Shown here: positions 19,012 through 47,522 of the stretch, one piece after another | How positions within the stretch are numbered: the first letter of the stretch is position 1 | Layout: every line of letters starts with the position of its first letter | Virus record (IMG/VR): IMGVR_UViG_3300048014_000015 | Span: 1-64,000 of that record | Strand: one strand, 5' to 3' | From: a virus | DNA: 64,000 bases | Notes under the pieces: model-generated | Database searches by the model: none | Told to the model about the DNA's origin: nothing | What the model saw: the letters and a program-made list of their open reading frames with translations, nothing else | Made by a program: the position numbers and the translations under genes

Positions 19012-19035
19012 AATGTTTAACCCATGGGTTAGGTG

Positions 19036-26295: not shown

Positions 26296-26354
26296 TCCCT
26301 ATAGGTTTATTCTATGGGCGATAGGTGTATTATATCAGATACGTCAATAGGTTA

Positions 26355-26938: not shown

Positions 26939-27511
26939 CTAAGAGTTTGATACTCTAACTGCCTCAGCATCTGACTCAGGTACTACCCTCACCACCTCAG
27001 CATCTTGAACATCAATAGTATCGGAAAGTTCTTTAGGTTTGTTCACATCATTAAATGAAACACCATTAGCCTCTAACTTCAGTCTAATGGCCGCAATATC
27101 ATCAGGACTATATTTCTTCTGTTGGTTATGTTTGGAATACATACCATAGTGTTTCATTAATAGGTCTAGTGCCCCTTTAGCTGAGTGATAATCTCTATCT
27201 CGCATGGCATAGAGATAAATTCTCTTCATTTTTTCGATTACTTCTTCTTTCTCACCTTGTTTTTTAGCAATATACTTACACTCTTCTTCATCAATAATCT
27301 TTTGCACAATCAAACTTTTGAACAATTTAGCCGCACATGACTTAGCTACTTCATCCTTCATATCACCATTTTCATCAAAAACAGCCCTATAAGCCCTACC
27401 TGTATCATAGTCAATTAGGTATTCTCGAGCAAACCGCTCATGTCTACGCTCAATTACAGTTTTATTATTATTTTTCTGTAACATCTTAACAACGAGATTA
27501 TCCATAGCCAT
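26939..27511 (-). CDS. terS: terminase small subunit (Terminase_2-like)
   Basis: RHERFAREYLIDYDTGRAYRAVF...AAKLFKSLIVQKIIDEE resembles the conserved N-terminal HTH region of Terminase_2 small subunits. Confidence 0.7.
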   Translation of the reverse strand: MAMDNLVVKMLQKNNNKTVIERRHERFAREYLIDYDTGRAYRAVFDENGDMKDEVAKSCAAKLFKSLIVQKIIDEEECKYIAKKQGEKEEVIEKMKRIYLYAMRDRDYHSAKGALDLLMKHYGMYSKHNQQKKYSPDDIAAIRLKLEANGVSFNDVNKPKELSDTIDVQDAEVVRVVPESDAEAVRVSNS

Positions 27512-30826: not shown

Positions 30827-30855
30827 TTGACAGTTAGCAGCTGTCGGCTTAAAAA
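30827..30855 (+). promoter_or_regulatory. sigma70-like promoter with dyad (TTGACAG-N7-CTGTC), -10 TAAAAA
   Basis: TTGACA 30827-30832, 17-nt spacer, TAAAAA 30850-30855. Faces the GC-rich island. Confidence 0.55.
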
Positions 30856-30884
30856 GATCTTACCACAGTGGTCAAGGTGATCCA

Positions 30885-30928
30885 CTGGGGGAATTAACCT
30901 ATCACAGTTTTGAGGGGAAGTCATGGCA
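30885..30928 (+). repeat. partial copy of the island cassette-boundary repeat
   Basis: ctggggaattaacctatcacagttttgaggggaagtcatggca is identical to 31222-31265, including RBS, ATG and the first codons (MAR). Confidence 0.85.
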
Positions 30929-31159
30929 AGGGCACTGGTCAACGCGAACGAGTTCATCGGTCGCAACGCGAAGATGGACGCTCTGCTCCGATACGTCTTC
31001 GAGACCTGTGAAAGGCCGCACGGCCTCAATCCGGGCACGCTTCAGGTCTGGGAGGCGATGATGTTCCTTGGTGTCGTGAACTGCGGTGCAGACGGCCGAG
31101 CATGGCTTTCTGAGGGCGGCAAGGAACTGTTCAAGCTGGCGGATCGTGGGTCAAGGTGA
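30923..31159 (+). CDS. hypothetical protein (GC-rich island ORF A, 78 aa)
   Basis: GAGGGGA RBS 5 nt upstream of the ATG. GC-rich codon usage unlike the backbone. Confidence 0.6.
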   Translation: MARALVNANEFIGRNAKMDALLRYVFETCERPHGLNPGTLQVWEAMMFLGVVNCGADGRAWLSEGGKELFKLADRGSR

Positions 31160-31164
31160 GTAAA

Positions 31165-31245
31165 AACAGGTGTGACCAGCGGCAGGTAGGTGCAAGCCCT
31201 ATCCACACCTCTCCCCAATGTCTGGGGAATTAACCTATCACAGTT
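31165..31245 (+). repeat. 81-bp cassette-boundary repeat, copy 1
   Basis: aacaggtgtgaccagcggcaggtaggtgcaagccctatccacacctctccccaatgtctggggaattaacctatcacagtt. One mismatch to 32258-32338. Contains AGGTGTG/CACACCT and CCCCA/TGGGG stems. Confidence 0.9.
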
Positions 31246-31258
31246 TTGAGGGGAAGTC

Positions 31259-32245
31259 ATGGCACGGGTCGAACAGTACTTGCCGGTTGGAACAGTGGTC
31301 ACCGCTCGCCCACAGGGAGGAAAGGCGATTGAATGGACCACAAAAAGGGAGGTGACAATCGCGGATCATGTCCAACAGGATTGCCCGCTCGGGGGCAAGA
31401 CAAAAACCCTCACCGGAACTTTTCTTCGCGACCGTCAATGCACGGTCAGCGGTGTGGAAATTTGGTTCTCGGCCCGATCACTCCGTCAGAGAATCGCGGT
31501 GGACAAGTGGGAGGTCTGTGATGATGCATACAACCACCAACTCACCAAAATCGACTACGATATCCCGACTTCTTTGGGGCAGGCGTACGCAGTGAGCGTA
31601 GCCGCTGAACTCCACAAAATTGGTGTCCGTTCATCAAATTCCTGTTGGTTTGTCCGCACCGGAGATACTCCCTACTATCTGTTAGGAGAGATGGAAGAGA
31701 TGGGCGTACGCAAAGTTAGTGCCGACAGGATTGACCCATCAGAGACAAAAAAGTTGATTGCTCGAATGATAGTCGAATTGTCCGAGCAAGTAGAAAAATA
31801 CGTTCGGGGGGCTAATGAGACTCTCGTGTCGGCAACGGCGAAGTTGCAAGAGTCACAAGAGAATGGAATAGATGAGGAGAAGGCGGTCAACGACTGCCTG
31901 ATAGCTGCTAAAGCTTTGGAAAAGAGGTTGGAAAAATACAAGGAACAAATGCTCGCTGGAGCGAACAAACTGGGGATTCGCTCTTCGGCATGGAATGCTG
32001 ACAGGCTATCACAGATTGCTCAGGTGACGGGCAGTGAGCTACGAAAACGGGCAGCAGCATACAAACGAGCGGCGGATATCCTAGTGCAGAGTACAGATAC
32101 TGATTTGCACGCGGCTGGCATAGTCGCACAAGTATCAGCCCTACCAGCGGGGGTCATGGCTGATATTCTTCGCGAAGCTGGACATGAATCGGCAGCGGAA
32201 GAATTGACCGCTGAATACTCACTCCTGGATACACTGGGTGATTAG
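31259..32245 (+). CDS. hypothetical protein (island ORF B, 328 aa, C-terminal coiled-coil-like half)
   Basis: Same leader and RBS as ORF A. Long ORF in the only sensible frame. No recognisable motif. Confidence 0.7.
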   Translation: MARVEQYLPVGTVVTARPQGGKAIEWTTKREVTIADHVQQDCPLGGKTKTLTGTFLRDRQCTVSGVEIWFSARSLRQRIAVDKWEVCDDAYNHQLTKIDYDIPTSLGQAYAVSVAAELHKIGVRSSNSCWFVRTGDTPYYLLGEMEEMGVRKVSADRIDPSETKKLIARMIVELSEQVEKYVRGANETLVSATAKLQESQENGIDEEKAVNDCLIAAKALEKRLEKYKEQMLAGANKLGIRSSAWNADRLSQIAQVTGSELRKRAAAYKRAADILVQSTDTDLHAAGIVAQVSALPAGVMADILREAGHESAAEELTAEYSLLDTLGD

Positions 32246-32257
32246 TACAGGAGTTAG

Positions 32258-32338
32258 AACAGGTGTGACCAGCGGCAGGTAGGTGCAAGCCCTACCCACA
32301 CCTCTCCCCAATGTCTGGGGAATTAACCTATCACAGTT
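32258..32338 (+). repeat. 81-bp cassette-boundary repeat, copy 2
   Basis: Identical to 31165-31245 except one base (t/c). Followed by a 7-bp duplication (cacagtt). Confidence 0.9.
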
Positions 32339-32374
32339 CACAGTTTTGAGCAACCCCTGACTGGAGACTGACCC

Positions 32375-32692
32375 GTGACGACCGACACCATGACCATGAC
32401 CCTGCAATCGTTCCTCGCCGAGCATGCGATCTGCCGCGTGTGGTACGCGAGCGTCGCGTCCCCCGGCGGGAGCGAGTTGGTTCTCAACACCGACGACGAC
32501 TACTGCGACTCGCAATCTCTGCTGGAGACACCGCCGGTCCCGGCAGCCCTCGACCTGGGGGGCACCGTGACCCGCGACGCGGACGGCGAGTACCGCTGGA
32601 AGGTCGATTCGCTCGCGGGCGTGGACTTGCGGGACTGCGCCAGGTCCACCGTCTACGACCTGACCGTCTGGGGCGATGTCATTCAGGGCTGA
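32375..32692 (+). CDS. hypothetical protein (island ORF C, ~105 aa, very GC-rich)
   Basis: GTG start 9 nt after GGAGA; alternative ATGs at 32390 and 32396. Strong GC3 bias in this frame only. Confidence 0.6.
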   Translation: MTTDTMTMTLQSFLAEHAICRVWYASVASPGGSELVLNTDDDYCDSQSLLETPPVPAALDLGGTVTRDADGEYRWKVDSLAGVDLRDCARSTVYDLTVWGDVIQG

Positions 32693-33031
32693 CGACGACC
32701 GTCGCGAACACTATACGGACGGAGACCCGATCTACTCCGTCTGCAACCGCGACACGAATATTACTATCCTACTATCCTATCGTACATCATGTATAGGGTG
32801 TGTATCTCTGTGGGTGTCCAATGAATGTCAGACTATTAGAGAAGCTGTCGATCAGTGGCTAACTCACGGAGGGAGTGAGTGAGAAGACGGCTTACCAGGA
32901 AGTGGGATGAGGGTGGGGTTGTTGCCCTGCCCCCTTTAATCGTTTACAGGATGCTTCAGGATCGACGATCTACGTGCTGTGTGTGAAATCACTCAGGGGG
33001 ATAGCTCGAATCGATCCTGGAGTGAGTAAAC

Positions 33032-33925
33032 CTAACAGTAGGTAGAGTGGGGAGCAGGGAGCACTATAGGACGACACCTAGAACGTCTGATTAGATTAGA
33101 ATTAGATAAACGATCATTAGACTTATTAGTTTTAGAATGATCTATCTTAGAGTGCCCTACTTTAGAATGATCTACTTTAGAATCATCATCACTATTTGGT
33201 ATACCCCCTAACTTACCTATAACTAATTTATGTACTAATTTACGTATACCATCTTGAGCATTGTGTCCCATACTCCTTAACTTACGAATCTCTATAGGTG
33301 ATAACCAGGTAGTAACTGGTTTCTTCTTTTTATTAGGACTAATTTTAGGTTTACTATACTGTTTTAAACCTAACACAGTATTAGATTTGGTACTGTGTGG
33401 TAAACCGCATCGCTTTTGAGCGGTGGTTAGTACGACCCTCCTGGATTTCATATACCGCATCGCTGTATCTGATCGTCCCATCTTCATTGCGGCATCTAAT
33501 AGTTTTTTCCTACGATGTTCTGGTAGATTACCAAACTCATGAGCCGCTTCATCATCTAAACTTCTTCTACTACTATGTACTCTAGAATTAGCTGCGAGTG
33601 GTGGACCAACATCTGGTCCATGATGCATCCTAGCAAACCAATCTCCAGGTAGTTCGTCAGGTTGTGGTATATCTGTGTCATCGTATAACCAGTATCTCCA
33701 TCTATGGGGTATAAATGGTCCCTCTGAATAAAGATTATGATGTTCTTCAGGTTCACCACGATCACTATAAGCAGTAGGTATTTTACGCATTAAACCTAAT
33801 GCACGATAACCTTTTGCTCTTGGATCACCAATCTCCTCTAAGTGGTCAGCTAGTACCATCCTGGTATGATGGTCATCTGGATGTTGGTCTAAGTGAGCCT
33901 GCATAGCTTCTTCTGTATCTGTCAT
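33032..33925 (-). CDS. TIGR02996-like domain protein
   Basis: N-terminus EEAMQAHLDQHPDDHHTRMVLADHLEEIGDPRAKGYRALG. Confidence 0.75.
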   Translation of the reverse strand: MTDTEEAMQAHLDQHPDDHHTRMVLADHLEEIGDPRAKGYRALGLMRKIPTAYSDRGEPEEHHNLYSEGPFIPHRWRYWLYDDTDIPQPDELPGDWFARMHHGPDVGPPLAANSRVHSSRRSLDDEAAHEFGNLPEHRRKKLLDAAMKMGRSDTAMRYMKSRRVVLTTAQKRCGLPHSTKSNTVLGLKQYSKPKISPNKKKKPVTTWLSPIEIRKLRSMGHNAQDGIRKLVHKLVIGKLGGIPNSDDDSKVDHSKVGHSKIDHSKTNKSNDRLSNSNLIRRSRCRPIVLPAPHSTYC

Positions 33926-33964: not shown

Positions 33965-36076
33965 TTATTTACCTATGGAAGTTACTGTTCTAGGTAACAC
34001 CCCCCCAGTAGCCCAATTCTCTGCATGTCTTTCTACTGAAACCCTTATAGGTATATTAATACCTTTACTAGCAGACTCCATAATACTACGAATTTCGTTA
34101 GCCCTGGAATCAGTAAATTTATAATCGTTACCCACTATTGGAAAGTCAAACACGAGTTCATCATGTACAGTTAGTATCATCCAGGCATCGAATCCATTAG
34201 ATCGCCATTCTGTTAGTTTTTGGTCACAGAGTACCATAGCTTTATTTAACACTTGTGCGGCAGTAGAACTAACATGATAACATAAAGGAGTAGTCGGTTC
34301 AACCTTACCATAATACCCACGTTTAGCCTGAATAGGAAACCCACGTTCAGGATCAATTGTCGTATCGGGAATAGTTGAAACATAATTTTGTTTCTCAGCC
34401 AATCTTAGCAAGTCTTTAGATAGCTTGTCGATCCTGGGGAATCGACTAGCAATCTTGTGGTAACCCCCTGATACTCGATATGTCTGATCTACCTTCTTTT
34501 CTTGTGCTCCATACTGCCTTGCAAAACTTCCATTTTTTGTCCATTGATACCAACTATCTTCAAATAAGGTCTTAACGTCTTTACCATGTTTCTTAAATAG
34601 CTCTGGATGTAGTGTATCGAATATTAGTAAGTGATAGCTACCATAATACGGTGGTTCTTCGGGATTGTCGAATACCTTTGCCATCTCTACTTCATTAGCC
34701 TCATATGCTGGTATCGCCAGTTCAATACCCGTATAGTCACAGCTATACCATATCCGCCCCTCTCGTGGACCGAAACACTTCCTAAGATTGGTTTTCTTAT
34801 GTTTACTAACGTTAGCTTGGTTAGGATTATTATGTGAAAACCTTAAACCTATAGTACCAGTTGGATTCAGGTTAGGGTATAATGTAGCATACCTGGCACC
34901 AATATGGTCCAGGATTGGTTGTTCTTTATCTCGTATACAAAATCTTTCATATGCTCTTAAATAACCTAAAGCAGTATCATACTCACTCTTCTCATTTAGA
35001 ATCTTAATAAATTTCTGTTCTAATGAATGTTCTGGTAATGTTAACTCATACTCCTCTTTAACTTCAGTATCAAATACTGGATTACCTAGTGGGTCTTTAC
35101 TCTTACTTTCACTACGACGTAGAACAGGTAATCCCATTACCTCAAATACGAACTTATCGAGATTTTTGTTACGTCCACGTTTAGGTAATTCAAGTTTGTA
35201 GTTATACTCTTCAGCTATACCTATACAAATTTGTTCCAGGTCATTGGATTTCTCTGTAAACTCTTTCACCATTTCTAAATGAGTTTTGAGTTTATAGGTA
35301 ATACCATGATGTTCCATCCTATGTACTACTGGAAGTATCTTCAAACGTTCCCGATATATCCTATCTAACCTTCGTCGTAACACCTCTTCCCACATTACAC
35401 TTATTAACGGTATTAAACAGGAACTATCCACATCAGCATAAGTAGTTGCAGCTGTAAGCCAATTTTCATATCCATAACCTGCAGTCCACTTCTCACCTTC
35501 AAATCTGGCTATACACTCCGGTAACCATGTATCAGCCATCCATGCTTTACCTTCCTTATCACTATTACCCCTGGTAGAGGGTAATAATTGGTATCCCTCT
35601 CCGTCGGTCAAACCATCTGAAGCTAATTTCCAATCCTTCATATAGACCCTACTCCTACACAACCTCCTAGCAGTTTGTACGATAGTTTCCATCTTAGTTT
35701 CAAATGGTTTAATATCCCTATCTAAGTATTTTTTAACTACAGAAGTTAGGTCGTGATTTTCTTGAGAAGAAAGCATATGAGCCATAAATAGGGTATCTTC
35801 TACCTTATGCCATAAGTTCTCCAGGTTTATTCCAATAGCTCCGAGCATTTTTAAATCGAACTTTGCATTGTGGAACACCAACTTGTCTGCACTATCTAAT
35901 AGGTTTTGTATTTTACCTACATCACTTTTATCGACTAAAACTTTTCTGGTTTTTGGATCGACTTGCCATTGCCATGTACGCTGTACGTCCCTATCATCAC
36001 AAGTAGTAACTAGATACGGACGACAGCCGTGAAAAGTATCTAGTCCAGTCGATTCTACGTCTACTCCGAGAATCAT
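33965..36076 (-). CDS. family A DNA polymerase with 3'-5' exonuclease domain
   Basis: Exo I GVDVESTGLD, Exo II HNAKFDLKML. Pol motif A CDYTGIELAI, motif C LTVHDELVFD. Confidence 0.9.
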   Translation of the reverse strand: MILGVDVESTGLDTFHGCRPYLVTTCDDRDVQRTWQWQVDPKTRKVLVDKSDVGKIQNLLDSADKLVFHNAKFDLKMLGAIGINLENLWHKVEDTLFMAHMLSSQENHDLTSVVKKYLDRDIKPFETKMETIVQTARRLCRSRVYMKDWKLASDGLTDGEGYQLLPSTRGNSDKEGKAWMADTWLPECIARFEGEKWTAGYGYENWLTAATTYADVDSSCLIPLISVMWEEVLRRRLDRIYRERLKILPVVHRMEHHGITYKLKTHLEMVKEFTEKSNDLEQICIGIAEEYNYKLELPKRGRNKNLDKFVFEVMGLPVLRRSESKSKDPLGNPVFDTEVKEEYELTLPEHSLEQKFIKILNEKSEYDTALGYLRAYERFCIRDKEQPILDHIGARYATLYPNLNPTGTIGLRFSHNNPNQANVSKHKKTNLRKCFGPREGRIWYSCDYTGIELAIPAYEANEVEMAKVFDNPEEPPYYGSYHLLIFDTLHPELFKKHGKDVKTLFEDSWYQWTKNGSFARQYGAQEKKVDQTYRVSGGYHKIASRFPRIDKLSKDLLRLAEKQNYVSTIPDTTIDPERGFPIQAKRGYYGKVEPTTPLCYHVSSTAAQVLNKAMVLCDQKLTEWRSNGFDAWMILTVHDELVFDFPIVGNDYKFTDSRANEIRSIMESASKGINIPIRVSVERHAENWATGGVLPRTVTSIGK

Positions 36077-37943: not shown

Positions 37944-37976
37944 TTGGACATTCCTTAAGGGTTATAGGTTAGAACA

Positions 37977-38004
37977 CTGACTACTGACTACTGACTACTG
38001 ACTA
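37977..38004. repeat. 4 x 7-bp perfect tandem repeat (ctgacta)
   Basis: Lies in the leader between the promoter at 38038-38066 and the ATG at 37943. Confidence 0.9.
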
Positions 38005-38037
38005 CCACTAGCTGCTAATACCATTCAACTAATTAAT

Positions 38038-38378: not shown

Positions 38379-39410
38379 TTACATCTCCCCCTTAATAACC
38401 TTTAAGATTTTCTCGTAGGTAGGATCTACGATGAAATCAGGTAGTGGTGTTGTGATGTTAATCGACCTACGAAACTTAGTTCGATAGATAGGATCGGGAC
38501 CAACTCTCAATACATATTCAGTACCTACTTTAACTTTGGTAGGTATAGATATATCTCCCATCATTTGTTGTTGTGTTTCTGTCTTATCTCGAATAACCGT
38601 TTGACCCATATAGGATACCTCAGCATTTAAAAAATCTGATACAGATTTACCTATAGCACTAGAAATATTGGGTTTCAGGAATTCACTCATAGCAGGGGAA
38701 GTACCCTCATCGTGGGTTAGATTCACCTCATGGGAGTTAATTACTATAGATAATTCATTAGACCTAGGAATATCTAAAATAGCTTGTAGCATCTTCATTA
38801 AATCATGAGAACATTGTATCCAAACATCCTTCCACTCTTTACTAGCATATAAGAACGGTTTACTAGCTGGAACCTCTTTTCCTTGTGCGGCAAATAGCTC
38901 TACAATACGGTTTTTACGAAGTTTCGTAGCTGTGTCCAATACTATTGTCCTATATCTTTCTCCAGTAAATGAGCCCATACCCAAGAACTTTAATTGTTCT
39001 TTGAAACTGTTACCCTTGTCTTGAGAATTAACCACTTTACTGAACCCCCACTGTGACCGACCACTAACAGCATGCTCCAAACACCTGTAATAGTCACTAG
39101 CAGTCTCAATATTAGCTACATCTATTCCCGGAACACCAACGATACTATCAGTTCCCACTTCAGTAGCAATTAACAAAAGTGGTTTAGGAAAGGTACAAGC
39201 GATTCTAGTCTTACCTGTTCCTGGATCACCGTACCAGCTACATTTTAACCTATTGTAGTTAGTAGACTCTACTGGTTTTATAAGTGAACCTATGTTATGG
39301 GTTCCGTTTGAGTTCGTCTGTATTTGTGGAAATGTTGGGTTTATCTGTGTGGTACGGGATGGCATCTGATGTTTCCTGTTCTGGGGTGTAAATAGGTTGG
39401 AAAGACTCAC
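38379..39410 (-). CDS. Sak4-like / AAA_24 RecA-fold ATPase
   Basis: Walker A WYGDPGTGKT and Walker B IVLDTATKL. Start is uncertain: GTG at 39410 or ATG at 39365. Confidence 0.8.
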   Translation of the reverse strand: MSLSNLFTPQNRKHQMPSRTTQINPTFPQIQTNSNGTHNIGSLIKPVESTNYNRLKCSWYGDPGTGKTRIACTFPKPLLLIATEVGTDSIVGVPGIDVANIETASDYYRCLEHAVSGRSQWGFSKVVNSQDKGNSFKEQLKFLGMGSFTGERYRTIVLDTATKLRKNRIVELFAAQGKEVPASKPFLYASKEWKDVWIQCSHDLMKMLQAILDIPRSNELSIVINSHEVNLTHDEGTSPAMSEFLKPNISSAIGKSVSDFLNAEVSYMGQTVIRDKTETQQQMMGDISIPTKVKVGTEYVLRVGPDPIYRTKFRRSINITTPLPDFIVDPTYEKILKVIKGEM

Positions 39411-39529: not shown

Positions 39530-40702
39530 TTACTTCCTTGTAACTAAATTACTGGTATTGGTTTTCAATTCTGTAAACATTTCTGTACATTCCTCTAAAT
39601 TTGCTGTACTCCCAGTAAGAATATAATCGTCATATTCTGATCCATAATCATTTGTTATAGATGGTATACCAAAGGGAGTAGTATACTGAATATTGTCCAG
39701 GAGAGTCGTAAGAATATTACTAGTCCATGACGCAGATGATCCAGGACTTCTAATTAGTTGCTCCTTATAATTGATAACAGTCTGGCAATCCCACCATATA
39801 CATAATCTCTCCAAAGTTGGGATTAGGGTTTCTTTTTCAAAAACTTCTATATCTTCTTCACTTTTCTCTGTTTCCCACCTAAAGAAATACGTCTCTGGTT
39901 CGTCCTGTATATATTTCGCTAACCTATTATAATACTGATCGATAGACTCATTTTTTGTCTGTCTGATACTCCCCTTACCACCAGATAATGGTCTTCTAAT
40001 TACGTTATAACGAATGCCTTTTACTTTATTACCATAAGTATGTCTCAGTGCAATCAGGTATATCATTGTCTGTAAGTCATACTTTAATTGTCTCTCAATT
40101 TTACTAACATCTACCTCGCCTTTAGTTTTTGTATCTCCTAGCCATATTTCGGAGTTGTCGTCATCTATCCAATCCATTTTTCCACGTAGATATACCGTCC
40201 TACCACTAGGTAGTTCATACGGAACACAAAATACATGTTCCTTAGCTATTGGCCTATTACCAAACTTCATGGAATGGTAGTTCTTTTCCCAATAGCTTAT
40301 ATAAACTGGAAACTGACATAGACATACACTATACCATTTATAAATCTCTTCTTGAGAGAAAGGATATAACCTACAGAGTTGTTCGGCATATTCCTTTAGT
40401 GCATAGGACCAACCTAAATTACTTCCAACCCCAATATTCGATGAGCTATATAACTCATCACATAGGTGAAACATATTTCCATATTCTAGTTTATGGTTAA
40501 ACGTACTCCTAGGTTTTAGCTTATCAATAATAAATACTTTGAACCGTTTTGGACATGCTAGGAATTTACCTAACAGACTTTGTGTTACTCCACCATTGGG
40601 AGAATTTACCTCTGGACCATCCCAGATAGGTTTAGTATTAACGTTCACGTTAGATAGTGGGTGAACGTATGGAACGGCATTATTCGGATTGGTATTATTC
40701 AT
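39530..40702 (-). CDS. PD-(D/E)XK nuclease (RecB/Cas4-like exonuclease)
   Basis: GKMDWIDD, LGDTKTK (D-x-K) and QLKYDLQTMIY (QxxxY) motifs in the canonical order. Confidence 0.75.
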   Translation of the reverse strand: MNNTNPNNAVPYVHPLSNVNVNTKPIWDGPEVNSPNGGVTQSLLGKFLACPKRFKVFIIDKLKPRSTFNHKLEYGNMFHLCDELYSSSNIGVGSNLGWSYALKEYAEQLCRLYPFSQEEIYKWYSVCLCQFPVYISYWEKNYHSMKFGNRPIAKEHVFCVPYELPSGRTVYLRGKMDWIDDDNSEIWLGDTKTKGEVDVSKIERQLKYDLQTMIYLIALRHTYGNKVKGIRYNVIRRPLSGGKGSIRQTKNESIDQYYNRLAKYIQDEPETYFFRWETEKSEEDIEVFEKETLIPTLERLCIWWDCQTVINYKEQLIRSPGSSASWTSNILTTLLDNIQYTTPFGIPSITNDYGSEYDDYILTGSTANLEECTEMFTELKTNTSNLVTRK

Positions 40703-40953: not shown

Positions 40954-41235
40954 TTAGGTTGTATCTTTATTCTTTTTCCTATAACGATTATTGTGGACTT
41001 CGGGACACGGATCAGTTGTTCCATGTACCTTTATTACAATATAACCATCACATACGGTTACAGAAATCAGGTAACCATGTCTTTTAGCTGCCTTTCTACT
41101 ATACTGAGCGAAAGTATGGTCTAGACCGTTATAGTCTTTATTCCTAAATAACTTTACTTCCCTGTTTTTAAACCAACTGAACCAGTTGTATCTCCTACCC
41201 TTTTTTAGATTACAATTATTAACCACTTTACACAC
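40954..41235 (-). CDS. hypothetical protein
   Basis: 93-aa ORF with a GTG start directly after the MazG stop. Confidence 0.5.
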   Translation of the reverse strand: MCKVVNNCNLKKGRRYNWFSWFKNREVKLFRNKDYNGLDHTFAQYSRKAAKRHGYLISVTVCDGYIVIKVHGTTDPCPEVHNNRYRKKNKDTT

Positions 41236-41237
41236 CT

Positions 41238-41657
41238 CTAGTATTTTTTACCGTGCATGTACTCCCTACTCTTGTTGTACTCCATTTTAGCTAATGTAAT
41301 ACTGGCTAAATTAATGTCATACCCACCACAGAAATCTAGTAAGCGGATGAATAAGTCCGCACATTCTTCTTCCATCGAAGTAATCGGTCTGGGTGATTTG
41401 GTAGAAGTAGAATCAAAAATCCTTATTGGTAGTAACTCCTGTTTATTTGGTTCTCCTTGTAGAAATTTCTTTTCACAAGGTGGATTACCTTTCCTATGTG
41501 CTTCTAACAACTCAGATAATTCCGAATGCATCAGAGCAACCTTACATGGTACACTAGCTACTTCAAAGTTTTTCCAGAATCCGTTTTTTGCAGCTGTTTC
41601 GTGACATTCCTTAATTAGTTTTTCCATAATTTCTAAAAACATGGCAGATTCAAACAT
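41238..41657 (-). CDS. MazG-like nucleoside triphosphate pyrophosphohydrolase
   Basis: Paired acidic helices: MHSELSELLEA and EEECADLFIRLLDF. Confidence 0.8.
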   Translation of the reverse strand: MFESAMFLEIMEKLIKECHETAAKNGFWKNFEVASVPCKVALMHSELSELLEAHRKGNPPCEKKFLQGEPNKQELLPIRIFDSTSTKSPRPITSMEEECADLFIRLLDFCGGYDINLASITLAKMEYNKSREYMHGKKY

Positions 41658-41685
41658 CTGGTCTCTACCTTTTGTGTTAGGTTAA

Positions 41686-41713
41686 TTGACAACGACACGA
41701 CCATACCTATATC
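41686..41713 (+). promoter_or_regulatory. sigma70-like promoter for the plus-strand block
   Basis: TTGACA 41686-41691, 16-nt spacer, TATATC 41708-41713. Confidence 0.45.
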
Positions 41714-41734
41714 ATGACATGTAGCAACTGTCAA
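41706..41734 (-). promoter_or_regulatory. sigma70-like promoter for the minus-strand replication operon
   Basis: Minus sense reads TTGACA-gttgctacatgtcatga-TATAGG. Its -10 overlaps the -10 of the plus-strand promoter. Confidence 0.45.
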
Positions 41735-41761
41735 TAGTAACAAAGGAATAAGGACAAAACC

Positions 41762-42040
41762 ATGAGAATATACAAAACTTTAATAGATTATGGGGATAAA
41801 GCTAAGAAAACTAAATTTCATTTTATTATTTCTAACTTGTCTGGGGAATTGATGTATAGCTATGATATAGGGTCTTATTTTTACGATAAAGAGATATTTA
41901 CCTATTGGAAACCTATTGCAGACTTAATTTTTGATAGGTGGATGATAGAAAAAGTTACAGGTGTACCAGTACCTTACGGATATGATAGGTTAAAAGAATT
42001 GATATATGGTTCATCAGATACAGAAGATATAATTATTTAA
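41762..42040 (+). CDS. hypothetical protein
   Basis: 92-aa ORF with an AAGGA RBS. Confidence 0.55.
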   Translation: MRIYKTLIDYGDKAKKTKFHFIISNLSGELMYSYDIGSYFYDKEIFTYWKPIADLIFDRWMIEKVTGVPVPYGYDRLKELIYGSSDTEDIII

Positions 42041-42059
42041 TACTGCTATCTAATACCTG

Positions 42060-42189
42060 TATTGGTATTAAGTATTGGTATTAAGTATTGGTATTAAGTA
42101 TTGGTATTAAGTATTGGTATTAAGTATTGGTATTAAGTATTGGTATTAAGTATTGGTATTAAGTATTGGTATTAAGTATTGGTATTAAG
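42060..42189. repeat. 10 x 13-bp perfect tandem repeat (tattggtattaag)
   Basis: Counted directly: ten identical head-to-tail units with no spacers. Each unit is itself tatt-gg/tatt-aag. Confidence 0.95.
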
Positions 42190-42340
42190 GAGAATCTTTT
42201 CCCACCCAACCGCCCTATATTATATATATAGGTATAGAGGTATAGTAGATACTTAACATAAGACATATACTAAACTACCAGTCAATAGTAGTTTTCGGCC
42301 GACCATCCCCCATTGCGAAAAACACATACCACTACAGAAA

Positions 42341-42410
42341 ACACACCTATCCCCAGGAATACACACCTATCCCCAGGAATACATACCTATACCAGGAATA
42401 CATACCTATG
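42341..42410. repeat. ~3.5 copies of a 20-bp tandem repeat (acacacctatccccaggaat) running into the HNH start codon
   Basis: Two perfect copies (42341-42360, 42361-42380), one degenerate 19-nt copy, and a partial copy containing the ATG at 42408. Confidence 0.85.
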
Positions 42411-42812
42411 ATAGAATTCTATACCCAACTCAAAAAACTAGGACATAATACCTATTATGAATATCTCCAGTCCGATCACTGGAAGGAGTTCCGTAAAAAG
42501 TATTATAGGTCAAGAAAACGCAAATCATGTACACTATGTAAATCACGGAATGACATACACCTACACCATATAACCTACAATAGATTAGGGAGGGAACAGT
42601 TGAACGATGTTATACCTCTATGTGGGGAATGCCATGAACTAATACACGAACATTTGACTAATAAGTACCAAAGCAAGGTAGAACATACTAATTCCGTAAT
42701 CGCTCTCCTTAGAGCAGAACAACCCATTAGGGGTATACCGCTACATAGGTCCACCAATCGCCGTGGAAGAAGAGCTAGGGCCATAGGAATCGATCCTACT
42801 GAAGACCAATGA
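42408..42812 (+). CDS. HNH endonuclease
   Basis: CTLCKS...IHLHHITYNRLGREQLNDVIPLCGECHELIH (Cys4 + H-N-H). Confidence 0.8.
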   Translation: MIEFYTQLKKLGHNTYYEYLQSDHWKEFRKKYYRSRKRKSCTLCKSRNDIHLHHITYNRLGREQLNDVIPLCGECHELIHEHLTNKYQSKVEHTNSVIALLRAEQPIRGIPLHRSTNRRGRRARAIGIDPTEDQ

Positions 42813-42872
42813 ACCCCACATACCACCAGATAACCGGATATGTTATTTCTCTCAAAAAAGTTGCTTTGGGGC

Positions 42873-42901
42873 TGGACAGTGTGTAGCTGTCATGCTACTA
42901 T
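42873..42901 (+). promoter_or_regulatory. sigma70-like promoter with dyad (TGGACAG-N7-CTGTC), -10 TACTAT
   Basis: TGGACA 42873-42878, 17-nt spacer, TACTAT 42896-42901. Confidence 0.55.
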
Positions 42902-42979
42902 GTTACTGGTTAGGTAGGGAATTAACCTAACGAATACTTGATAGTTTGATTTAACCTATCACACTTTTGGAGTACTACG

Positions 42980-43762
42980 ATGGACGATCAACTGGACATG
43001 GGTATGGAAGCTATGTACAACCTTAATAAGAATGTTGAGTCTGAACAGATCGAATCTGAACAGACAAATGCGTCTATAGGGGACGTACTAGGGGAAGGTG
43101 GTGAGACTATTAGTACGATAGATGAACAGGAGAGTACATCAGAACAGGGCAGTACATCAAGTACAAATAATGATACGACAGATGTAGTCAGTAATTCACC
43201 TATCGTAAATGATACTGAAGATATTAAACCTATACGAAAAGGGAGAGGAAGACTACCATTAGGGCCAAACGTACTGAGGCAGACTCAATTGAGGGTGTTA
43301 GCGGCATTGTCTGATAAGGAAGCAACTAATGGAACCAGTTCGTTGAACATCGATCAGATATCGGCTATCACAAGGGTATCGGTTCCAATGCTAAAACAGG
43401 GATTAGGATCAAACAATCCAGAGAAGAGGGAAGCACACGATAGACAATATGGGTATAAGTCTTTGATCTCACACGGGTACGTCTGTGTGGTCTATGCTGG
43501 TGGTGTCTATCAGTACTATCTATCGCCCATTGGTCAGAGGAAGTGTGACGATCTAGAGGACGAACTTATAGCCATTAGGATGAAGGAACCAAGAGATGCT
43601 GGACTATCGATCCGGCAAGGACCGAAAAAACCTAAAGACTTTCGAAGGAGATATACCAAACGGCTACCGAAGAGGGTGGCCAAACACGAAATCGTCGAAG
43701 TTGATCTATCGCTTTGCGTTCAGAAAAAGCCCGAATTCCGGGCACCTGGGAGGAATCTGTAA
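42980..43762 (+). CDS. hypothetical DNA-binding protein (winged-helix-like core, acidic N-terminus, basic C-terminus)
   Basis: RQTQLRVLAALSDKE...LNIDQISAITRVSVPMLKQGL looks like a wHTH. GGAG RBS. The N-terminal LDMGMEAMY is shared with the 912-aa protein. Confidence 0.6.
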   Translation: MDDQLDMGMEAMYNLNKNVESEQIESEQTNASIGDVLGEGGETISTIDEQESTSEQGSTSSTNNDTTDVVSNSPIVNDTEDIKPIRKGRGRLPLGPNVLRQTQLRVLAALSDKEATNGTSSLNIDQISAITRVSVPMLKQGLGSNNPEKREAHDRQYGYKSLISHGYVCVVYAGGVYQYYLSPIGQRKCDDLEDELIAIRMKEPRDAGLSIRQGPKKPKDFRRRYTKRLPKRVAKHEIVEVDLSLCVQKKPEFRAPGRNL

Positions 43763-43778
43763 AAATTCCTCCCAGGTG
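43743..43778 (+). other. 14-bp perfect hairpin spanning the stop codon of 42980..43762
   Basis: cacctgggaggaat-ctgtaaaa-attcctcccaggtg. No T tract follows, so it is not a classical terminator. Confidence 0.8.
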
Positions 43779-43780
43779 GG

Positions 43781-43809
43781 TTGACAGCTACTAGCTGTCG
43801 GGATAGGAT
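43781..43809 (+). promoter_or_regulatory. sigma70-like promoter with perfect dyad GACAGCTA-C-TAGCTGTC, -10 TAGGAT
   Basis: TTGACA 43781-43786, 17-nt spacer, TAGGAT 43804-43809. Confidence 0.6.
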
Positions 43810-43871
43810 ACTCTCGCCTAGGTGGTTCCGCAGTGGTTTCACCAGGGCGAACACTCTAAAGGAGAAGAATC

Positions 43872-44105
43872 GTGTCTAGACGGAAGGCGAAAATCGAGAA
43901 GCAAGTCCCACGTCGTAGGCAGTGTGTAGTGTGTGGGTTCACATCGTTTAGGGGGGACGTAGTTCACGGTAGGTTTATGTGTACAGCATGTGAGAAGCAG
44001 ATGGTTGAAGATCAGTGTCGAGATTTTGAGGAACGAGAGTACGGGGAGTTCCTACGAATTTCAAACAATCTCGATAGGTTTGATAGAGATGGTAGATTTG
44101 CATAA
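43872..44105 (+). CDS. small zinc-ribbon protein
   Basis: GTG start 8 nt after AAGGAG. CVVC...x17...CTAC. Confidence 0.55.
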   Translation: MSRRKAKIEKQVPRRRQCVVCGFTSFRGDVVHGRFMCTACEKQMVEDQCRDFEEREYGEFLRISNNLDRFDRDGRFA

Positions 44106-44172
44106 TCATTAACCTAACTGATATTTTTAAACCTAACCAACACCACCAACCTAACCTGATTCAGGGGATATC

Positions 44173-44811
44173 ATGAAAACTCGTATAACACTCAACTTCG
44201 CTGAGCAAACCAAAATCCGAGAATATATTATCGCTAACCGTGAGAGACTGGAAACTACTAAGGGTATGACCAGACAGGATTTGGCGGACGAATGCACAAG
44301 ACTACTTAATCGACCAGTAACCATTGGTAATCTGCGGAGCATCGAACCATCAATAGAACCACCGCTAAATATCCGTACACAGGAATCTCGTGGTTATGCT
44401 CCCAGCAGAGAGCAGATAGAGAAGTTGCGAGAAGAGGTAGTTCAAGATATTTCAGAACTATCTAAATCAGTCACATTGATTGAGGAAAGATTGACAGTAC
44501 AGGAATCCTCACTGAAAGAAATCCAATTAGAATTCTCTGACCGTATGCGAAAATTCGATGAAGCTCTGTCTGTATTGTCGTCACTAGAATCTGAGTGGAA
44601 ACGTGCCGCGAGTCGAATCGCTGAAGTCTCACGAGCGGTACAGGATACACAGACTCAGGTATCCAGAATTATTACAACTATTGATAAGGCGAGAGTGGTT
44701 TCGGCTATCAATGATGTGATTGAGGAACAGACCAGGTTTAGTGATATAAAGGCTGTCAAAGGTGAGGAACTGGGAAAGGCTGTGATAGTGCCTACTAATG
44801 GGAAAAAATAA
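44173..44811 (+). CDS. hypothetical protein: HTH-like N-terminus plus coiled-coil
   Basis: GMTRQDLADECTRLLNRPVTIGNLRSIE, then heptad-like E/L/K-rich sequence. AGGGGA RBS. Confidence 0.6.
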   Translation: MKTRITLNFAEQTKIREYIIANRERLETTKGMTRQDLADECTRLLNRPVTIGNLRSIEPSIEPPLNIRTQESRGYAPSREQIEKLREEVVQDISELSKSVTLIEERLTVQESSLKEIQLEFSDRMRKFDEALSVLSSLESEWKRAASRIAEVSRAVQDTQTQVSRIITTIDKARVVSAINDVIEEQTRFSDIKAVKGEELGKAVIVPTNGKK

Positions 44812-44826
44812 TTTCCTCCCAGTCAG

Positions 44827-44855
44827 TTGACGGTTGAGAGCAATCCCTATATCAT
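44827..44855 (+). promoter_or_regulatory. sigma70-like promoter (TTGACG-N17-TATCAT)
   Basis: Upstream of the ParB-like gene. Preceded by TTCCTCCCAG, as at 43766. Confidence 0.55.
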
Positions 44856-44874
44856 ACCCTCTCTACTAGTCGAT

Positions 44875-44895
44875 ACTGACATCTGACACCTGACA
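44875..44895. repeat. 3 x 7-bp tandem repeat (ctgaca[t/c]) in the leader of the ParB-like gene
   Basis: ctgacat ctgacac ctgacac, followed by a 9-bp-stem hairpin gaagcccca/tggggtttc. Confidence 0.85.
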
Positions 44896-44989
44896 CCGAC
44901 TGAAGCCCCATTGCTGGTGGGTGGGGTTTCGGTCGCTGCCAGAATGATTCTGGAGCGAATTCCGTAACAAACTGTGAAAGGTTATTTTG

Positions 44990-46978
44990 ATGCCACCGCG
45001 TACACTCAACAACGAACCGATTACATCAACTACTAAAGGAAAAATTATGAATGCGTTGGAAGAAGGACAGGAAGAGGCTATCGGAAGTGGGGGCAATGAG
45101 GGCAATGAAGGGGGTAAAGCTAAGTCCCTGAAACCACCGATTGTAGAACCAGAACCAATTGAAGAACTCAATAAGGTTATCTACCCACAGGTATGCGTCA
45201 CTGTGTGTGGTGCGCCAGAAGAAACTGGAGTGACTGAAGAACTCGCACAAAAGGTATCAGCACTCTTTTTATCAATTGGTGTCGATAATCTGATTGCATA
45301 TGCTCCACCTCTCACAGCAGAGGATGCGATTGGGATTATCGGTGCCGAATGGGAGCCAAAAGACACGAACGTGAAGTTCAAGGATAACTATGACATTGTA
45401 GATATTTACGGTAGGAAAATTAGATTCCACCGAAATATCCGGAACCGTCCGATCTATAAGTCAAACATCGACGATCGCTGTCAGGATATTCTGAATAAAA
45501 GATGGGAACTCAACGGCGAACCCATCATCATTTCGGATACAGGTAATACTCTGGATGGACAGCATACCCTACCTGCCCTGATTCTGGCGCAACAAAGACT
45601 AGAAACTGAAAAGGATGTTACCGGTACTCTAAAGTGGGCTGAGAAGTGGCCTTCAGGAATCATATCTATTCCTAAGGTAATTGTTTACGGAATTAAGGGT
45701 ACTGATTCCGTAATCAATACCATGAACACCTGCAAACCTAGGAGTTTCGCGGATGTTCTTTATCGCTCCCCATATTTCAGTGATTTACCAACTCACTCGA
45801 AAGATGGGTTAGATAGAAAGACGGCAGCAAGGGTTACCGACCATGCCGTTAAGGAAATCTGGCAGCGTACTGGTCTGTATCAGGATGGATATTCTGCTCG
45901 CCGTACCAACTCCGAAGGAGCAGCATGGATTGAGTCTCACGGAGGAATGGTCGGTAAGTTCATGGAGTGCGTCAGGTTTATTCTCGAAGAAGATCAGTTC
46001 GGGCATATTAGTAGCTATGTTCCGTGTGGAACTGCTGTAGCTTTAATGTGGTTATCAGCGTGTGGTAGCTCTGATAGTGCGAAATATTACGTCCTTCGCA
46101 ATGAAGATCGTGATATTGAGGCTTATGAGAGCCTAAGCTGGAAGAACTGGAAAATTGCCAAACAATTCTGGTTGGAGTTTGGCAATCGAGAAGCCGACCG
46201 CATCGTTAATGCGGGAAAGGAAAATGAACGGCGGGAACCTGGAAAGGTGACGGGTGACCTAAAGGCACTTACTGAGGTTCTTGTTGAGATGGGTGCATCA
46301 GAAGAACCTATGATTCGCGAGAAGGATTTCGTTATCGCGAAGGCATGGAACCTATGGCTAGAAGATAAGCCAATTACAGTAGGTGCCTTAAGGATTAAAG
46401 AGAGTGATTACGGAAAGCCAGACGAAAAAACTGGTGTCCGTAAACTGGACAAAAAGAAGCATCTACAGTTTGGGAATATTGATATCGGGATCGATCGTAT
46501 CCCTACAGAGAGGAAAGTTAAGGAAGCCGACGCAGCTACTCAGGCCAAACTGAATGCTGAAATAGAAGAAATGAAACGCCGGACTAAGGAAGGTCTGGGC
46601 GATAAGAAAGAAGATGACGAATCAGTAACGAGTGATGTTTTAGGTAATATTAAACCTAAATCCCAACAGGATTGTGAAGCATTACATGCTGCTCATCCAG
46701 AGTTGCAAGTAATACTCGTAAAAACCTATAACGGAAATTGCGAAACTTGGGGACAAGGTTCGGTAGTATTGGCAGAGATACTAAAGGTTCCCCCAGTAAC
46801 GCACCCCAATAATTCTCTATACCTGAAACTCAGTGTAGATGATTGGGACGCAATTTCTAACAGGGTTACTGATCGTGGATTTGCCATAGGTCTGGCCGAA
46901 TCTGTTAATGGTAGGCCGGAAATTATTATGACCAGCAAGCCATCACCTAGGAATGGGAATGGGCAGAGGAAGCGTTAA
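44990..46978 (+). CDS. large protein with a ParB/Srx-fold (DGQHR/DGQQR-type) N-terminal domain
   Basis: PIIISDTGNTLDGQHTLPALILAQ resembles the ParB-like nuclease/DGQHR core. Start is uncertain: TTG 44987, ATG 44990, or ATG 45047 after AAGGA. Confidence 0.55.
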   Translation: MPPRTLNNEPITSTTKGKIMNALEEGQEEAIGSGGNEGNEGGKAKSLKPPIVEPEPIEELNKVIYPQVCVTVCGAPEETGVTEELAQKVSALFLSIGVDNLIAYAPPLTAEDAIGIIGAEWEPKDTNVKFKDNYDIVDIYGRKIRFHRNIRNRPIYKSNIDDRCQDILNKRWELNGEPIIISDTGNTLDGQHTLPALILAQQRLETEKDVTGTLKWAEKWPSGIISIPKVIVYGIKGTDSVINTMNTCKPRSFADVLYRSPYFSDLPTHSKDGLDRKTAARVTDHAVKEIWQRTGLYQDGYSARRTNSEGAAWIESHGGMVGKFMECVRFILEEDQFGHISSYVPCGTAVALMWLSACGSSDSAKYYVLRNEDRDIEAYESLSWKNWKIAKQFWLEFGNREADRIVNAGKENERREPGKVTGDLKALTEVLVEMGASEEPMIREKDFVIAKAWNLWLEDKPITVGALRIKESDYGKPDEKTGVRKLDKKKHLQFGNIDIGIDRIPTERKVKEADAATQAKLNAEIEEMKRRTKEGLGDKKEDDESVTSDVLGNIKPKSQQDCEALHAAHPELQVILVKTYNGNCETWGQGSVVLAEILKVPPVTHPNNSLYLKLSVDDWDAISNRVTDRGFAIGLAESVNGRPEIIMTSKPSPRNGNGQRKR

Positions 46979-46991
46979 AGTGTGTTAGGTT

Positions 46992-47032
46992 AAATCCTAC
47001 CTGAATAATGTACTATTCAGGTAGGATTTTTT
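46992..47032 (+). terminator. rho-independent terminator
   Basis: 16-bp perfect stem aaatcctacctgaata/tattcaggtaggattt with a 6-nt loop. The last three stem bases plus the following ttt form a 6-T run. Confidence 0.85.
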
Positions 47033-47051
47033 ACACCCTATTTGGTGGACT

Positions 47052-47522
47052 ATGGAAGACTTAATTATTAACCTAGAAAGAAAGTTTGGACCATTGATAG
47101 GAAATACAAAGCTAGTAGCTACTGACTATTGTAAAGAACAAAATGATATTGATTCCTCAATATTAGCAGCATGGTTAGAGAGTGGGGAAGATTTTTCCGT
47201 ACTTGAAAATATCGATAGGGATAGGGGTGCTCGTGTGGAAAGTTTTTGTTGTCGTTTCTCCTGGAGTTTCCTGCATGTCGGTCCCCCGGATACATTACTA
47301 GTAGTAATGAGTAGAAGAGACACCGCAATAGCGCATACCACAATAGCCTTCAGAATCATAACAACTAACCTCATAACCTTAATTCCTCAAAGTCCTTTAA
47401 GAGATGGGCGAGTGAGTAAGGTATACTATCTTACTACAACAATCAATATCAACCCTGGACGAGAGAGTACGCCGATTCCTTCATACTCTGGTGGTCCACC
47501 TTACCACCCTACCCCCTCATAG
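47052..47522 (+). CDS. questionable ORF (conflicts with 47126..47374 on the minus strand)
   Basis: GGTGGA RBS and a plausible first ~60 aa, but the C-terminal half looks like antisense of a membrane segment. Confidence 0.3.
   Translation: MEDLIINLERKFGPLIGNTKLVATDYCKEQNDIDSSILAAWLESGEDFSVLENIDRDRGARVESFCCRFSWSFLHVGPPDTLLVVMSRRDTAIAHTTIAFRIITTNLITLIPQSPLRDGRVSKVYYLTTTININPGRESTPIPSYSGGPPYHPTPS
47126..47374 (-). CDS. questionable small membrane protein (possible holin/spanin component)
   Basis: N-terminal TM segment LVVMILKAIVVCAIAVSLLLITT. GAGGAattAAGG upstream. Lies downstream of the peptidase gene. Confidence 0.3.
   Translation of the reverse strand: MRLVVMILKAIVVCAIAVSLLLITTSNVSGGPTCRKLQEKRQQKLSTRAPLSLSIFSSTEKSSPLSNHAANIEESISFCSLQ

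Follow-up and report, generated by a model that had tools for sequence, protein, structure and literature searches.

What purpose is served by two adjoining tandem-repeat arrays, one of perfect 13-bp units and one of units of about 20 bp, that stand in a 367-bp spacer of an uncultured phage genome? The spacer occupies positions 42041-42407 of the 64,000-nucleotide stretch analysed here (IMG/VR record IMGVR_UViG_3300048014_000015, hereafter the window), which covers nearly the whole genome (64,000 of the 64,312 bp of the source contig) of a novel tailed phage belonging to a large uncultured family. We tentatively read the arrays as protein-binding sites at or beside the phage replication origin, in the main non-coding control region, and give this reading a probability of about 0.4. 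The layout of the spacer is origin-like, with the 13-mer array followed by a TA-rich palindrome and by four to five phased sites of about 20 bp, and direct observation covers the two arrays with their position and phasing, the weak duplex of the spacer, the skew switch, the relatives' non-coding region and the recurrence of short arrays; protein binding, melting and initiation at the spacer are what we infer from them. The elements of the region are, from left to right:

41686-41715, plus strand: sigma-70-like promoter (TTGACA, 18 nt, TATCAT; 11/12 consensus match) pointing into a plus-strand gene island
41715-41734, no strand: palindrome TGACAT-N8-ACTGTCAA, whose right arm reads TTGACAGT on the minus strand, is -35-like and faces the minus-strand genes
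41762-42040, plus strand: orphan open reading frame (ORF) of 92 amino acids (aa), GC 0.28, with an AAGGA ribosome-binding site, ending 19 bp before the 13-bp array
42050-42057, minus strand: the unit core GGTATTA(A)G in degenerate, inverted form (CTAATACC), 2 bp before the 13-bp array
42060-42189, plus strand: perfect 13-bp tandem array (TATTGGTATTAAG)x10, without a mismatch by direct reading
42214-42274, no strand: TA-rich tract between the two arrays, including the palindrome CCTATAT-tatat-ATATAGG (42214-42232)
42281-42311, plus strand: GTCAATAG followed by a C-rich box (TTTTCGGCCGACCATCCCCC), with like boxes at the same position in the relatives L004, L005 and L008, a likeness that is short and alone not statistically significant
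42308-42410, plus strand: array with a period of 19-22 bp and the consensus CCCCAGGAATACACACCTAT, with a degenerate unit at 42308
42408-42812, plus strand: HNH endonuclease gene (PHROG HNH families), the first conserved gene of the island

The strand switch lies where the initial annotation had placed it: 41657 is the last position of the minus-strand genes, and the ORF that begins at 41762 opens a plus-strand island of 5.8 kb (41762-47522), beyond which genes of tail type run on the minus strand again from 47552. In order, the island comprises the 92-aa ORF, the arrays, the HNH gene, a 260-aa protein, a Gin-like zinc-ribbon protein, a 212-aa coiled-coil protein, a 662-aa protein and a 156-aa protein. 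The spacer, described from the start as non-coding, indeed contains no ORF longer than 37 aa in any frame.

For the 13-bp array, direct reading and Tandem Repeats Finder (42059-42189, period 13, 10.1 copies, 100% matches, score 262) agree on ten perfect units, and it is by far the strongest tandem array that the program finds in the 64-kb window. The unit contains three G and no C (77% AT) and divides into a 6+7 sub-repeat (TATTGG/TATTAAG), and given the period of 13 every reading frame across the array meets a TAA. Exact matches to the 13-mer in the whole window are confined to the array; at up to two mismatches there are 23 matches compared with 4.9 expected, the array itself accounting for 10 of the 23. 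Neither the 13-mer nor the 20-bp unit has meaningful dyad symmetry, as judged from reading of the sequence and from the inverted-repeat listing. The degenerate inverted copy at 42050-42057 pairs with the first 13-mer in the DNA fold and is also listed as inverted repeats I2-I11, but it is weak and could be of chance origin. The 13-mer was also considered as a promoter and rejected: TGGTATTAA resembles an extended -10 element but lacks the invariant final T, and the promoter scan found none.

The array was met a second time in an independent sequencing run, ERR9963778 (Logan assembly, k=31), in which contig L002 stops 29 nt into the array and contig L001 takes over with the last 30 nt of it. 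Flanking sequence and 20-bp array are the same as in the window, and one single-nucleotide difference was seen. The array is therefore not an artefact of a single assembly, and its copy number alone is uncertain. The break at k=31 demands only at least about 3.4 copies of the 13-mer, and at 131 bp the array has a length between k and k+12 for a k of 127, at which a de Bruijn assembler could have settled on the smallest possible copy number; "ten" should therefore be taken as "at least about ten". Exact searches of IMG/VR with the 13-mer dimer and with the 20-mer both gave no match. Some pac sites consist of short repeated boxes, and tandem repeats are prone to assembly errors; nevertheless, a pac or other terminase recognition site, or an assembly artefact, is the least probable of all the explanations considered here, as the small and large terminase genes lie 15-19 kb away and the array recurs with identical flanks in the second run.

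The initial annotation had deduced a recent expansion from the perfect identity of the ten units, which is reasonable, and the same observation leads to the alternative that most needs weighing, namely a neutral minisatellite. On this account both arrays, the 20-bp array less clearly so, would be slippage products in a dispensable AT-rich leader of the early operon, without sequence-specific function, and would persist because the spacer tolerates changes of length. Ten identical units imply a very recent expansion, and a 6+7 sub-repeat is typical of stepwise microsatellite growth. We regard the minisatellite as somewhat less likely than an origin, to which it is a serious rival.

The 20-bp array proved slightly larger than first described, owing to a fifth, degenerate unit near 42308, and it ends as claimed in the ATG of the HNH gene (42408). 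It comprises three clear units (42351, 42371, 42392), a partial one (42329) and the degenerate one (about 42308-42328), and Tandem Repeats Finder delimits it at 42337-42409 (period 20, 3.7 copies, 92% matches, score 111). The exact 20-mer occurs in the window only at 42341 and 42361, and of the five places in the window where the core GAAWACAYA is found (both strands counted), four are in the array, at 42337, 42357, 42377 and 42396, with the degenerate unit at about 42317. At spacings of 20, 20 and 19 bp, close to two helical turns, the sites lie on the same side of the helix. The 20-bp array thus has the helically phased direct repeats, at least three in number and about 17-22 bp long, that characterise an iteron origin, and the 13-bp array does not. 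That these units are imperfect, hence older, and yet have kept their core and phasing speaks against the minisatellite. As well, the 20-mer was tried as a DnaA box and rejected, because CTATCCCCA differs from TTATCCACA at two positions and is too weak a match.

Each 20-bp unit carries a Shine-Dalgarno-like AGGA, and the last unit provides the ribosome-binding site of the HNH gene (AGGA, 10-nt spacer, ATG). The array resembles a tandem duplication of the HNH translation-initiation region, which favours the minisatellite, and it also raises the question of expression control, in which the repeats would be operator or translational-control sites of the early operon. The 20-bp AGGA units might offer standby sites to ribosomes or bind a translational repressor, whether encoded by the phage or supplied by the host as a CsrA-like protein that recognises GGA, and the 13-mer array, standing between the 92-aa ORF and the HNH gene, might be a bank of operators or a roadblock. 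Both arrays do lie within the predicted early transcript, which from the promoter at 41686-41715 would span the 92-aa ORF, the two arrays and the HNH gene, the scan having found no terminator-like site on the plus strand between promoter and HNH gene; in addition, the region adjoins a palindromic promoter/operator element conserved in relatives. However, the promoter and terminator scan found no promoter-like hexamers or terminators inside the arrays, single-strand folding of the spacer is no better than that of shuffled sequences (z=+0.72 as DNA, z=+1.07 as RNA), and Rfam returned only tRNAs, multi-GGA sponge RNAs being among the families without a match, both at the gathering threshold on the whole window and at E<=1 on 41500-43000. 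The relatives, too, express the same HNH gene without such repeats, and control of expression is a distinctly improbable role for the arrays. Because the spacer folds no better than shuffles, a structured RNA or single-stranded DNA element in the window was dropped from consideration.

The palindrome at 41715-41734 is the sole part of the control region that still aligns with relatives (41707-41763, blastn E=0.002-0.1), and its counterpart TGACAG-N7-CTGTCAA stands in L004 (6189), L005 (6933) and L008 (6281). Palindromes of the form TTGACAGT-N6-8-ACTGTCAA, which amount to back-to-back -35-like boxes, were seen at operon boundaries of the window (26352-26375, 30827-30847 and 41715-41734), and the same type occurs on the minus strand of the relatives (L004 at about 7177, L005 at about 8108). 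These boundary palindromes are probably a promoter/operator motif common to the phage group.

Between the arrays, the TA-rich tract at 42214-42274 is a candidate DNA-unwinding element, and its palindrome forms a hairpin in the DNA fold. The least stable 150 bp of the window are 42028-42177 (z=2.95), which take in most of the 13-bp array, and at lengths of 40 and 60 bp, 42215-42274 comes fourth to fifth in order of lowest stability (z about 3.0).

Cumulative GC skew, proposed earlier as a check on an origin, shows the inflection in the 64-kb window, with the minimum at 41-43 kb. Since such a minimum alone could reflect transcription, the minus-strand genes on either side of the island were compared. 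On the coding strand, the third-codon GC skew of the window stands at +0.19 for the block to the left of the island and at +0.025 for the block to the right, and in L004, L005 and L008 it is +0.22 to +0.25 on the left as against -0.05 to -0.12 on the right; the left value exceeds the right in 25 of the 27 family loci for which both are available, by our own count, which takes in the window and a few duplicate contigs. As transcription runs the same way in the two blocks, its direction does not by itself account for the contrast, and the simplest reading is a replication-related asymmetry that switches near the island.

Tandem arrays of non-coding type, whose unit length is not a multiple of three, are rare in the family and number only 15 in 636 kb of family sequence, 5 of which lie in the control region. 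Other members with control-region arrays are L110 (10 bp x4.8), L008 (17 bp x2.8) and L046 (7 bp x3.4); the array of L110, TCTTTAGACG x4.8, stands just downstream of a motif common to L110 and L005. When the window is excluded, 3 of 11 such arrays fall in 0.84% of the sequence (p=9e-5 relative to length, p=0.02 relative to non-coding length). A minisatellite accounts poorly for two different arrays that adjoin in such a genome and family, for the recurrence of arrays in the homologous control region of other members, and for a location that coincides with the skew switch and the stability minimum.

The close relatives that cross the locus in a contiguous assembly are L004, L005 and L008 (about 56% amino-acid identity), and they share one order: a minus-strand replication block, a non-coding divergent region, the HNH gene, small genes including the Gin-like one, the large protein and a minus-strand tail block. 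The HNH homologs (41-50% identity by tblastn) always stand just 3' of the non-coding region, which measures 450-730 bp between the divergent promoter element and the HNH gene; compact phage genomes seldom keep so much non-coding DNA, and its presence implies a function in cis. The three relatives have 300-360 bp of alignable non-coding DNA in common (E 1e-15 to 1e-22), and this DNA includes a conserved hairpin (L004 6376-6417, L005 7121-7158, L008 at about 6510-6548). Its loop reads (T)CCGCTTCGCTTC / CCTCGCTTCGCTCGG with an invariant core CGCTTCGCT, its stems of 9-13 bp differ in sequence between the phages with full complementarity kept, and it is flanked by AAGAGAAnTTCnnTGG before and a purine-rich GAAGAAGAAG run after. 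The hairpin looks like a real structured cis-element, whether an origin, a leader RNA or a priming site. The window aligns with the relatives only at 41707-41763 and has no such hairpin, which makes 41762-42407, that is, the orphan ORF with the arrays, a lineage-specific replacement of that conserved cis-element; having no homolog, this replacement also fits a minisatellite.

The contigs for two further relatives, P0002 and P0004, end 1.1-1.3 kb upstream of the large gene, short of the control region. Similarly, Logan contigs of close relatives (L003 1-246; L009 4-86) break 0.8-1.3 kb upstream of the large gene within coding low-complexity repeats (GTGGTG x30; an 18-24-bp G-rich repeat), from which it follows that the islands of relatives hold repeat-rich small genes and that short-read assemblies fragment there.

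Several results count against an origin at the arrays. Comparable arrays are absent from L004, L005 and L008, the last having only the weak 17-bp x2.8 repeat, an absence that equally suits a minisatellite; conversely, the loop CCGCTTCGCTTC was not found in the control region of the window, where the conserved CGCTTCGCT hairpin is missing. Rep-type iterons usually measure 17-22 bp, are spaced and are imperfect, so that ten perfect, contiguous units of 13 bp are not typical of them, and such identity suggests very recent slippage more than selection over a long time. The skew has a resolution of about 3-6 kb, roughly the width of the island, its sign change in distant relatives is nearer the right edge of the island, and codon usage of gene classes could account for part of the left/right difference. 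Stability minima comparable at the 40-100-bp scale occur elsewhere in the window, and the poor folding and the tRNA-only Rfam result given above belong here too. Finally, no initiator family (Rep, O-like or DnaA-like) was found in a scan of almost all window ORFs of at least 90 aa, several of them by one of the two libraries (Pfam, PHROG), and the orphan neighbours of the arrays have no family; the want of a nameable binding protein is, again, what a minisatellite would lead one to expect. The iteron reading of the initial annotation is therefore retained in part: it fits the skew minimum, the low stability and the phased 20-bp units, and it is not proven.

The genes from which a replication and packaging machinery can be read, by Pfam and PHROG scans, all lie on the minus strand to the left of the island:

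19119-20675, minus strand: portal protein
22614-24323, minus strand: large terminase
26939-27511, minus strand: small terminase
33965-36076, minus strand: family-A DNA polymerase
38379-39410, minus strand: Sak4/AAA_24 protein (Sak4-like annealing protein)
39530-40702, minus strand: PD-(D/E)XK exonuclease
41238-41657, minus strand: MazG-like pyrophosphatase

The DNA polymerase gave no tblastn match at 1e-10, and the stretch 41000-45000 has no DNA similarity to INPHARED phages. With these genes at hand, an origin at the spacer might work as follows. The early rightward promoter at 41686-41715 would transcribe into the control region, and a phage DNA-binding protein would settle at 42308-42410, where four to five phased sites of 19-20 bp lie, and might also coat the 13-mer array. 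Candidate binders are the orphan 92-aa, 212-aa and 260-aa products or the adjacent conserved HNH protein. The TA-rich palindromic tract (42214-42274) and the very AT-rich 13-mer array would then melt, allowing the loading of the phage replication proteins encoded just to the left, among them the family-A DNA polymerase, the Sak4-like annealing protein and the PD-(D/E)XK exonuclease. The functional core would be the phased 20-bp units with the TA-rich tract, and the 13-mer array would be an evolutionarily young, slippage-expanded, easily melted and probably length-variable component.

The candidate binders of the island and its large protein are placed as follows, in addition to the 92-aa ORF and the HNH gene:

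42980-43762, plus strand: 260-aa protein, a near-orphan with a single tblastn relative, in L004
44173-44811, plus strand: 212-aa orphan that has a coiled-coil region and whose N-terminus looks HTH-like, though only by eye
44990-46978, plus strand: 662-aa hallmark protein of the family, with a ParB/Srx-superfamily N-terminal domain and a MutS-domain-I-like C-terminal domain

The helix-turn-helix (HTH) proteins that had been named downstream of the arrays were not confirmed by any profile search: on the island proteins, Pfam, PHROG and NCBIfam gave only the HNH, the Gin-like zinc ribbon and coiled-coil noise. The 92-aa ORF has no homolog in L004, L005 or L008, and among 1.84 billion representative proteins it matched itself and, weakly, one repeat protein (E 3e-5); still, 92 open codons at 28% GC are unlikely by chance (about 3e-4 per frame by our estimate). 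Its product, for which Pfam, PHROG, NCBIfam and homolog searches gave no ribbon-helix-helix or winged-HTH assignment, is a possible binder of the 13-bp array. The 212-aa protein found only itself among 5.8 billion clustered proteins, its Pfam and NCBIfam matches being of coiled-coil type only, and it is a candidate for a lineage-specific binder of lineage-specific arrays. A homolog search with the 260-aa protein likewise brought back little beyond the query itself.

Two 7-bp arrays with related units were also noticed, ACTGACT x4.3 (perfect, 37976-38005), about 30 bp downstream of a 390-aa gene, and CTGACAC x3.1 (44876-44897), which an ORF at 44866-45171 overlaps. Both fall outside genes in crude ORF calling, yet listed ORFs overlap both partly.

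The 662-aa protein matters because the initial annotation had offered, as a second reading, a parS-like centromere or loading array for a ParB-like protein. In its fuller form this would be a partition centromere of parS or parC/sopC type, with the 13-mer array coated by the 662-aa protein or a small adaptor and segregating a plasmid-like or pseudolysogenic genome. Tandem-repeat centromeres are well known: parC of R1 has 10 repeats of 11 bp bound by ParR, sopC of F has 12 repeats of 43 bp, and pBtoxis and phage c-st have tubC with TubR, so that 4-12 contiguous copies of a direct repeat about 10-43 bp long make up the classic layout in types Ib, II and III. The 13-bp array resembles these in its head-to-tail repeats of about 10-13 bp, its roughly ten copies, its want of dyad symmetry and the small ORF that stops right before it, and a ParB/Srx-superfamily protein is encoded 2.8 kb downstream. 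Unlike them, it is accompanied by no detectable partition nucleoside triphosphatase, as neither a ParA, ParM or TubZ-type enzyme nor an integrase or plasmid Rep was found among the window ORFs scanned with Pfam and PHROG. A palindromic parS, an inverted repeat of about 16 bp, is likewise not matched by units without a dyad.

The protein itself gives the centromere no better footing. Pfam assigns the window's protein to no family, although four homologs match Pfam MutS_I, and a PDB sequence-profile search of the family returned nothing meaningful and no ParB. A confident AlphaFold model of the protein (predicted local distance difference test, pLDDT, 86) matches PDB structures only through its C-terminal domain, which is MutS domain I-like, and a model of residues 60-356 (pLDDT 93) found no match in a PDB fold search, Noc appearing at E=4.9. 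Among the predicted viral structures of BFVD, the same residues matched a mycobacteriophage "ParB-like nuclease domain", the GmrSD N-terminal domain (DUF262), DNA-sulfur modification-associated (DndB-like) proteins and ParB/Sulfiredoxin proteins, and their motif, DGQHT in the window, is NGQHT in the family consensus and in most homologs. The protein thus belongs to the ParB/Srx superfamily at the level of the fold only, on the DUF262/GmrSD-N/DndB side, and is not a canonical partition ParB, which has an N-terminal CTP-binding ParB/Srx domain with a GERRxRA box, a central HTH and a C-terminal dimerisation domain. The label "ParB/Srx-like" thus stands for the superfamily, the label "ParB" is corrected, and the architecture suggests DNA-modification or DNA-sensing biology rather than partition.

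The distribution of the protein tells the same way. Members of its family measure 650-690 aa and end a short plus-strand island, with at least 61 protein homologs on contigs typically of 58-75 kb; tblastn confirmed 87 metagenome and 183 IMG/VR stretches encoding a relative (at least 160 loci), the IMG/VR relatives having come from a profile search, as a single-protein query with the 662-aa ORF gave no confirmed relative there. The combination of ParB/Srx and MutS-domain-I-like domains is therefore an uncharacterised but widespread phage architecture. Dozens of related loci keep the protein yet have no arrays comparable to those of the window; the arrays were seen only in this phage and are missing even from relatives that keep all conserved island genes, so that site and protein are not co-inherited. 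Nor is the phage family seen as plasmid or prophage: among 185,579 prokaryotic species genomes one held a relative, and this was a whole phage contig binned in a Dehalococcoidia metagenome-assembled genome. With no partition motor detected, a non-canonical ParB and a near-absence from species genomes, the centromere has little support and is highly improbable.

Repeat-bearing non-coding origin and control regions are a known feature of phages and plasmids (PMC7145576, PMC4980987, PMC5043065), an iteron-bearing ori being present in the PLE satellite of V. cholerae (PMC7145576). The spacer would be a new, unverified repeat-bearing origin or control region in an uncharacterised family, with a perfect 13-mer component that is unusual. 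The origin of lambda has four 19-bp iterons and an AT-rich tract, and oriR of P1 is likewise of iteron type. In common with iteron origins, the spacer has direct repeats of about 20 bp phased at about two turns beside an easily melted AT-rich tract, and it is non-coding, next to the replication gene module and at a strand-skew switch; it differs in that no recognisable initiator gene overlaps or adjoins it and in that its dominant array is 13 bp, contiguous and perfect. The primary origin of T7 consists of promoters with an AT-rich region, and the origins of the lactococcal phages c2 and sk1 lie between early and late gene clusters. Like these transcription-activated origins, the spacer stands directly downstream of a predicted early promoter and between oppositely transcribed blocks, has an AT-rich tract of low stability and belongs to a phage with its own family-A DNA polymerase, but they are not organised around a ten-unit perfect array and the promoter here is a consensus match only.

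Perfect minisatellites and other variable-number tandem repeats occur in bacterial genomes and in extrachromosomal elements such as Borgs. The 13-bp array shares with them its perfect units, its intergenic and lineage-specific occurrence and a probable rapid gain and loss of units by slippage. The difference is that here two unrelated arrays meet at one functionally loaded locus, with no genome-wide propensity and no comparable array in the rest of the window.

A more speculative reading, which we consider very unlikely though not as remote as the centromere, is a swap of control modules in this lineage. The conserved CGCTTCGCT-hairpin element would have been replaced by a cassette of the orphan gene, the array of at least ten 13-bp units and the phased 20-bp sites, and the array would nucleate a filament of an orphan protein (the 92-aa or the 212-aa coiled-coil product) that organises replication initiation or genome positioning, making a new pair of cis-site and binder without a database relative.

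Some further features of the genome were noted. Within the minus-strand replication module, 30840-32700 is a GC-rich (0.49-0.55) cluster of plus-strand cassettes that holds two copies of a sequence about 90 nt long (…ggtgtgaccagcggcaggtaggtgcaagccct…ggggaattaacctatcacagtt…), near 31170-31260 and 32255-32345, with its 3' half also at about 30885-30925. Each copy stands before a GC-rich ORF, one of which (31259-32245, 328 aa) has no Pfam or PHROG match, and the cluster resembles a set of acquired cassettes of moron type in which a leader or recombination site is repeated. A family 2 glycosyltransferase (14295-15200), a methyltransferase (15496-16074) and an RGP-family "reversibly glycosylated polypeptide" (17935-19062) lie among the head and packaging genes, a gene set that may serve the modification of virion or host-surface glycans. 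Moreover, the N-terminus of a 297-aa protein (33032-33925) scored 25.8 bits against TIGR02996, under the cutoff of 29.05; this domain is typical of paralog families in Gemmata and other Planctomycetes, and the match is a weak hint to the host lineage, as is the Dehalococcoidia bin of the one relative from the species genomes.

If the arrays are only a minisatellite, they remain useful for typing strains and show a place where assemblies from short reads break or collapse. The wider interest of the spacer lies in the fact that cis-acting sites, origins included, are almost never annotated in uncultured phages, and that this family is large and environmentally widespread. If the spacer is an origin, it would offer a handle for marker-frequency analysis of the activity of this phage in metagenomes, a basis for origin-based vectors or for interference with phage replication by cloned origin copies, and a route to studying the exchange of cis-modules between related phages.

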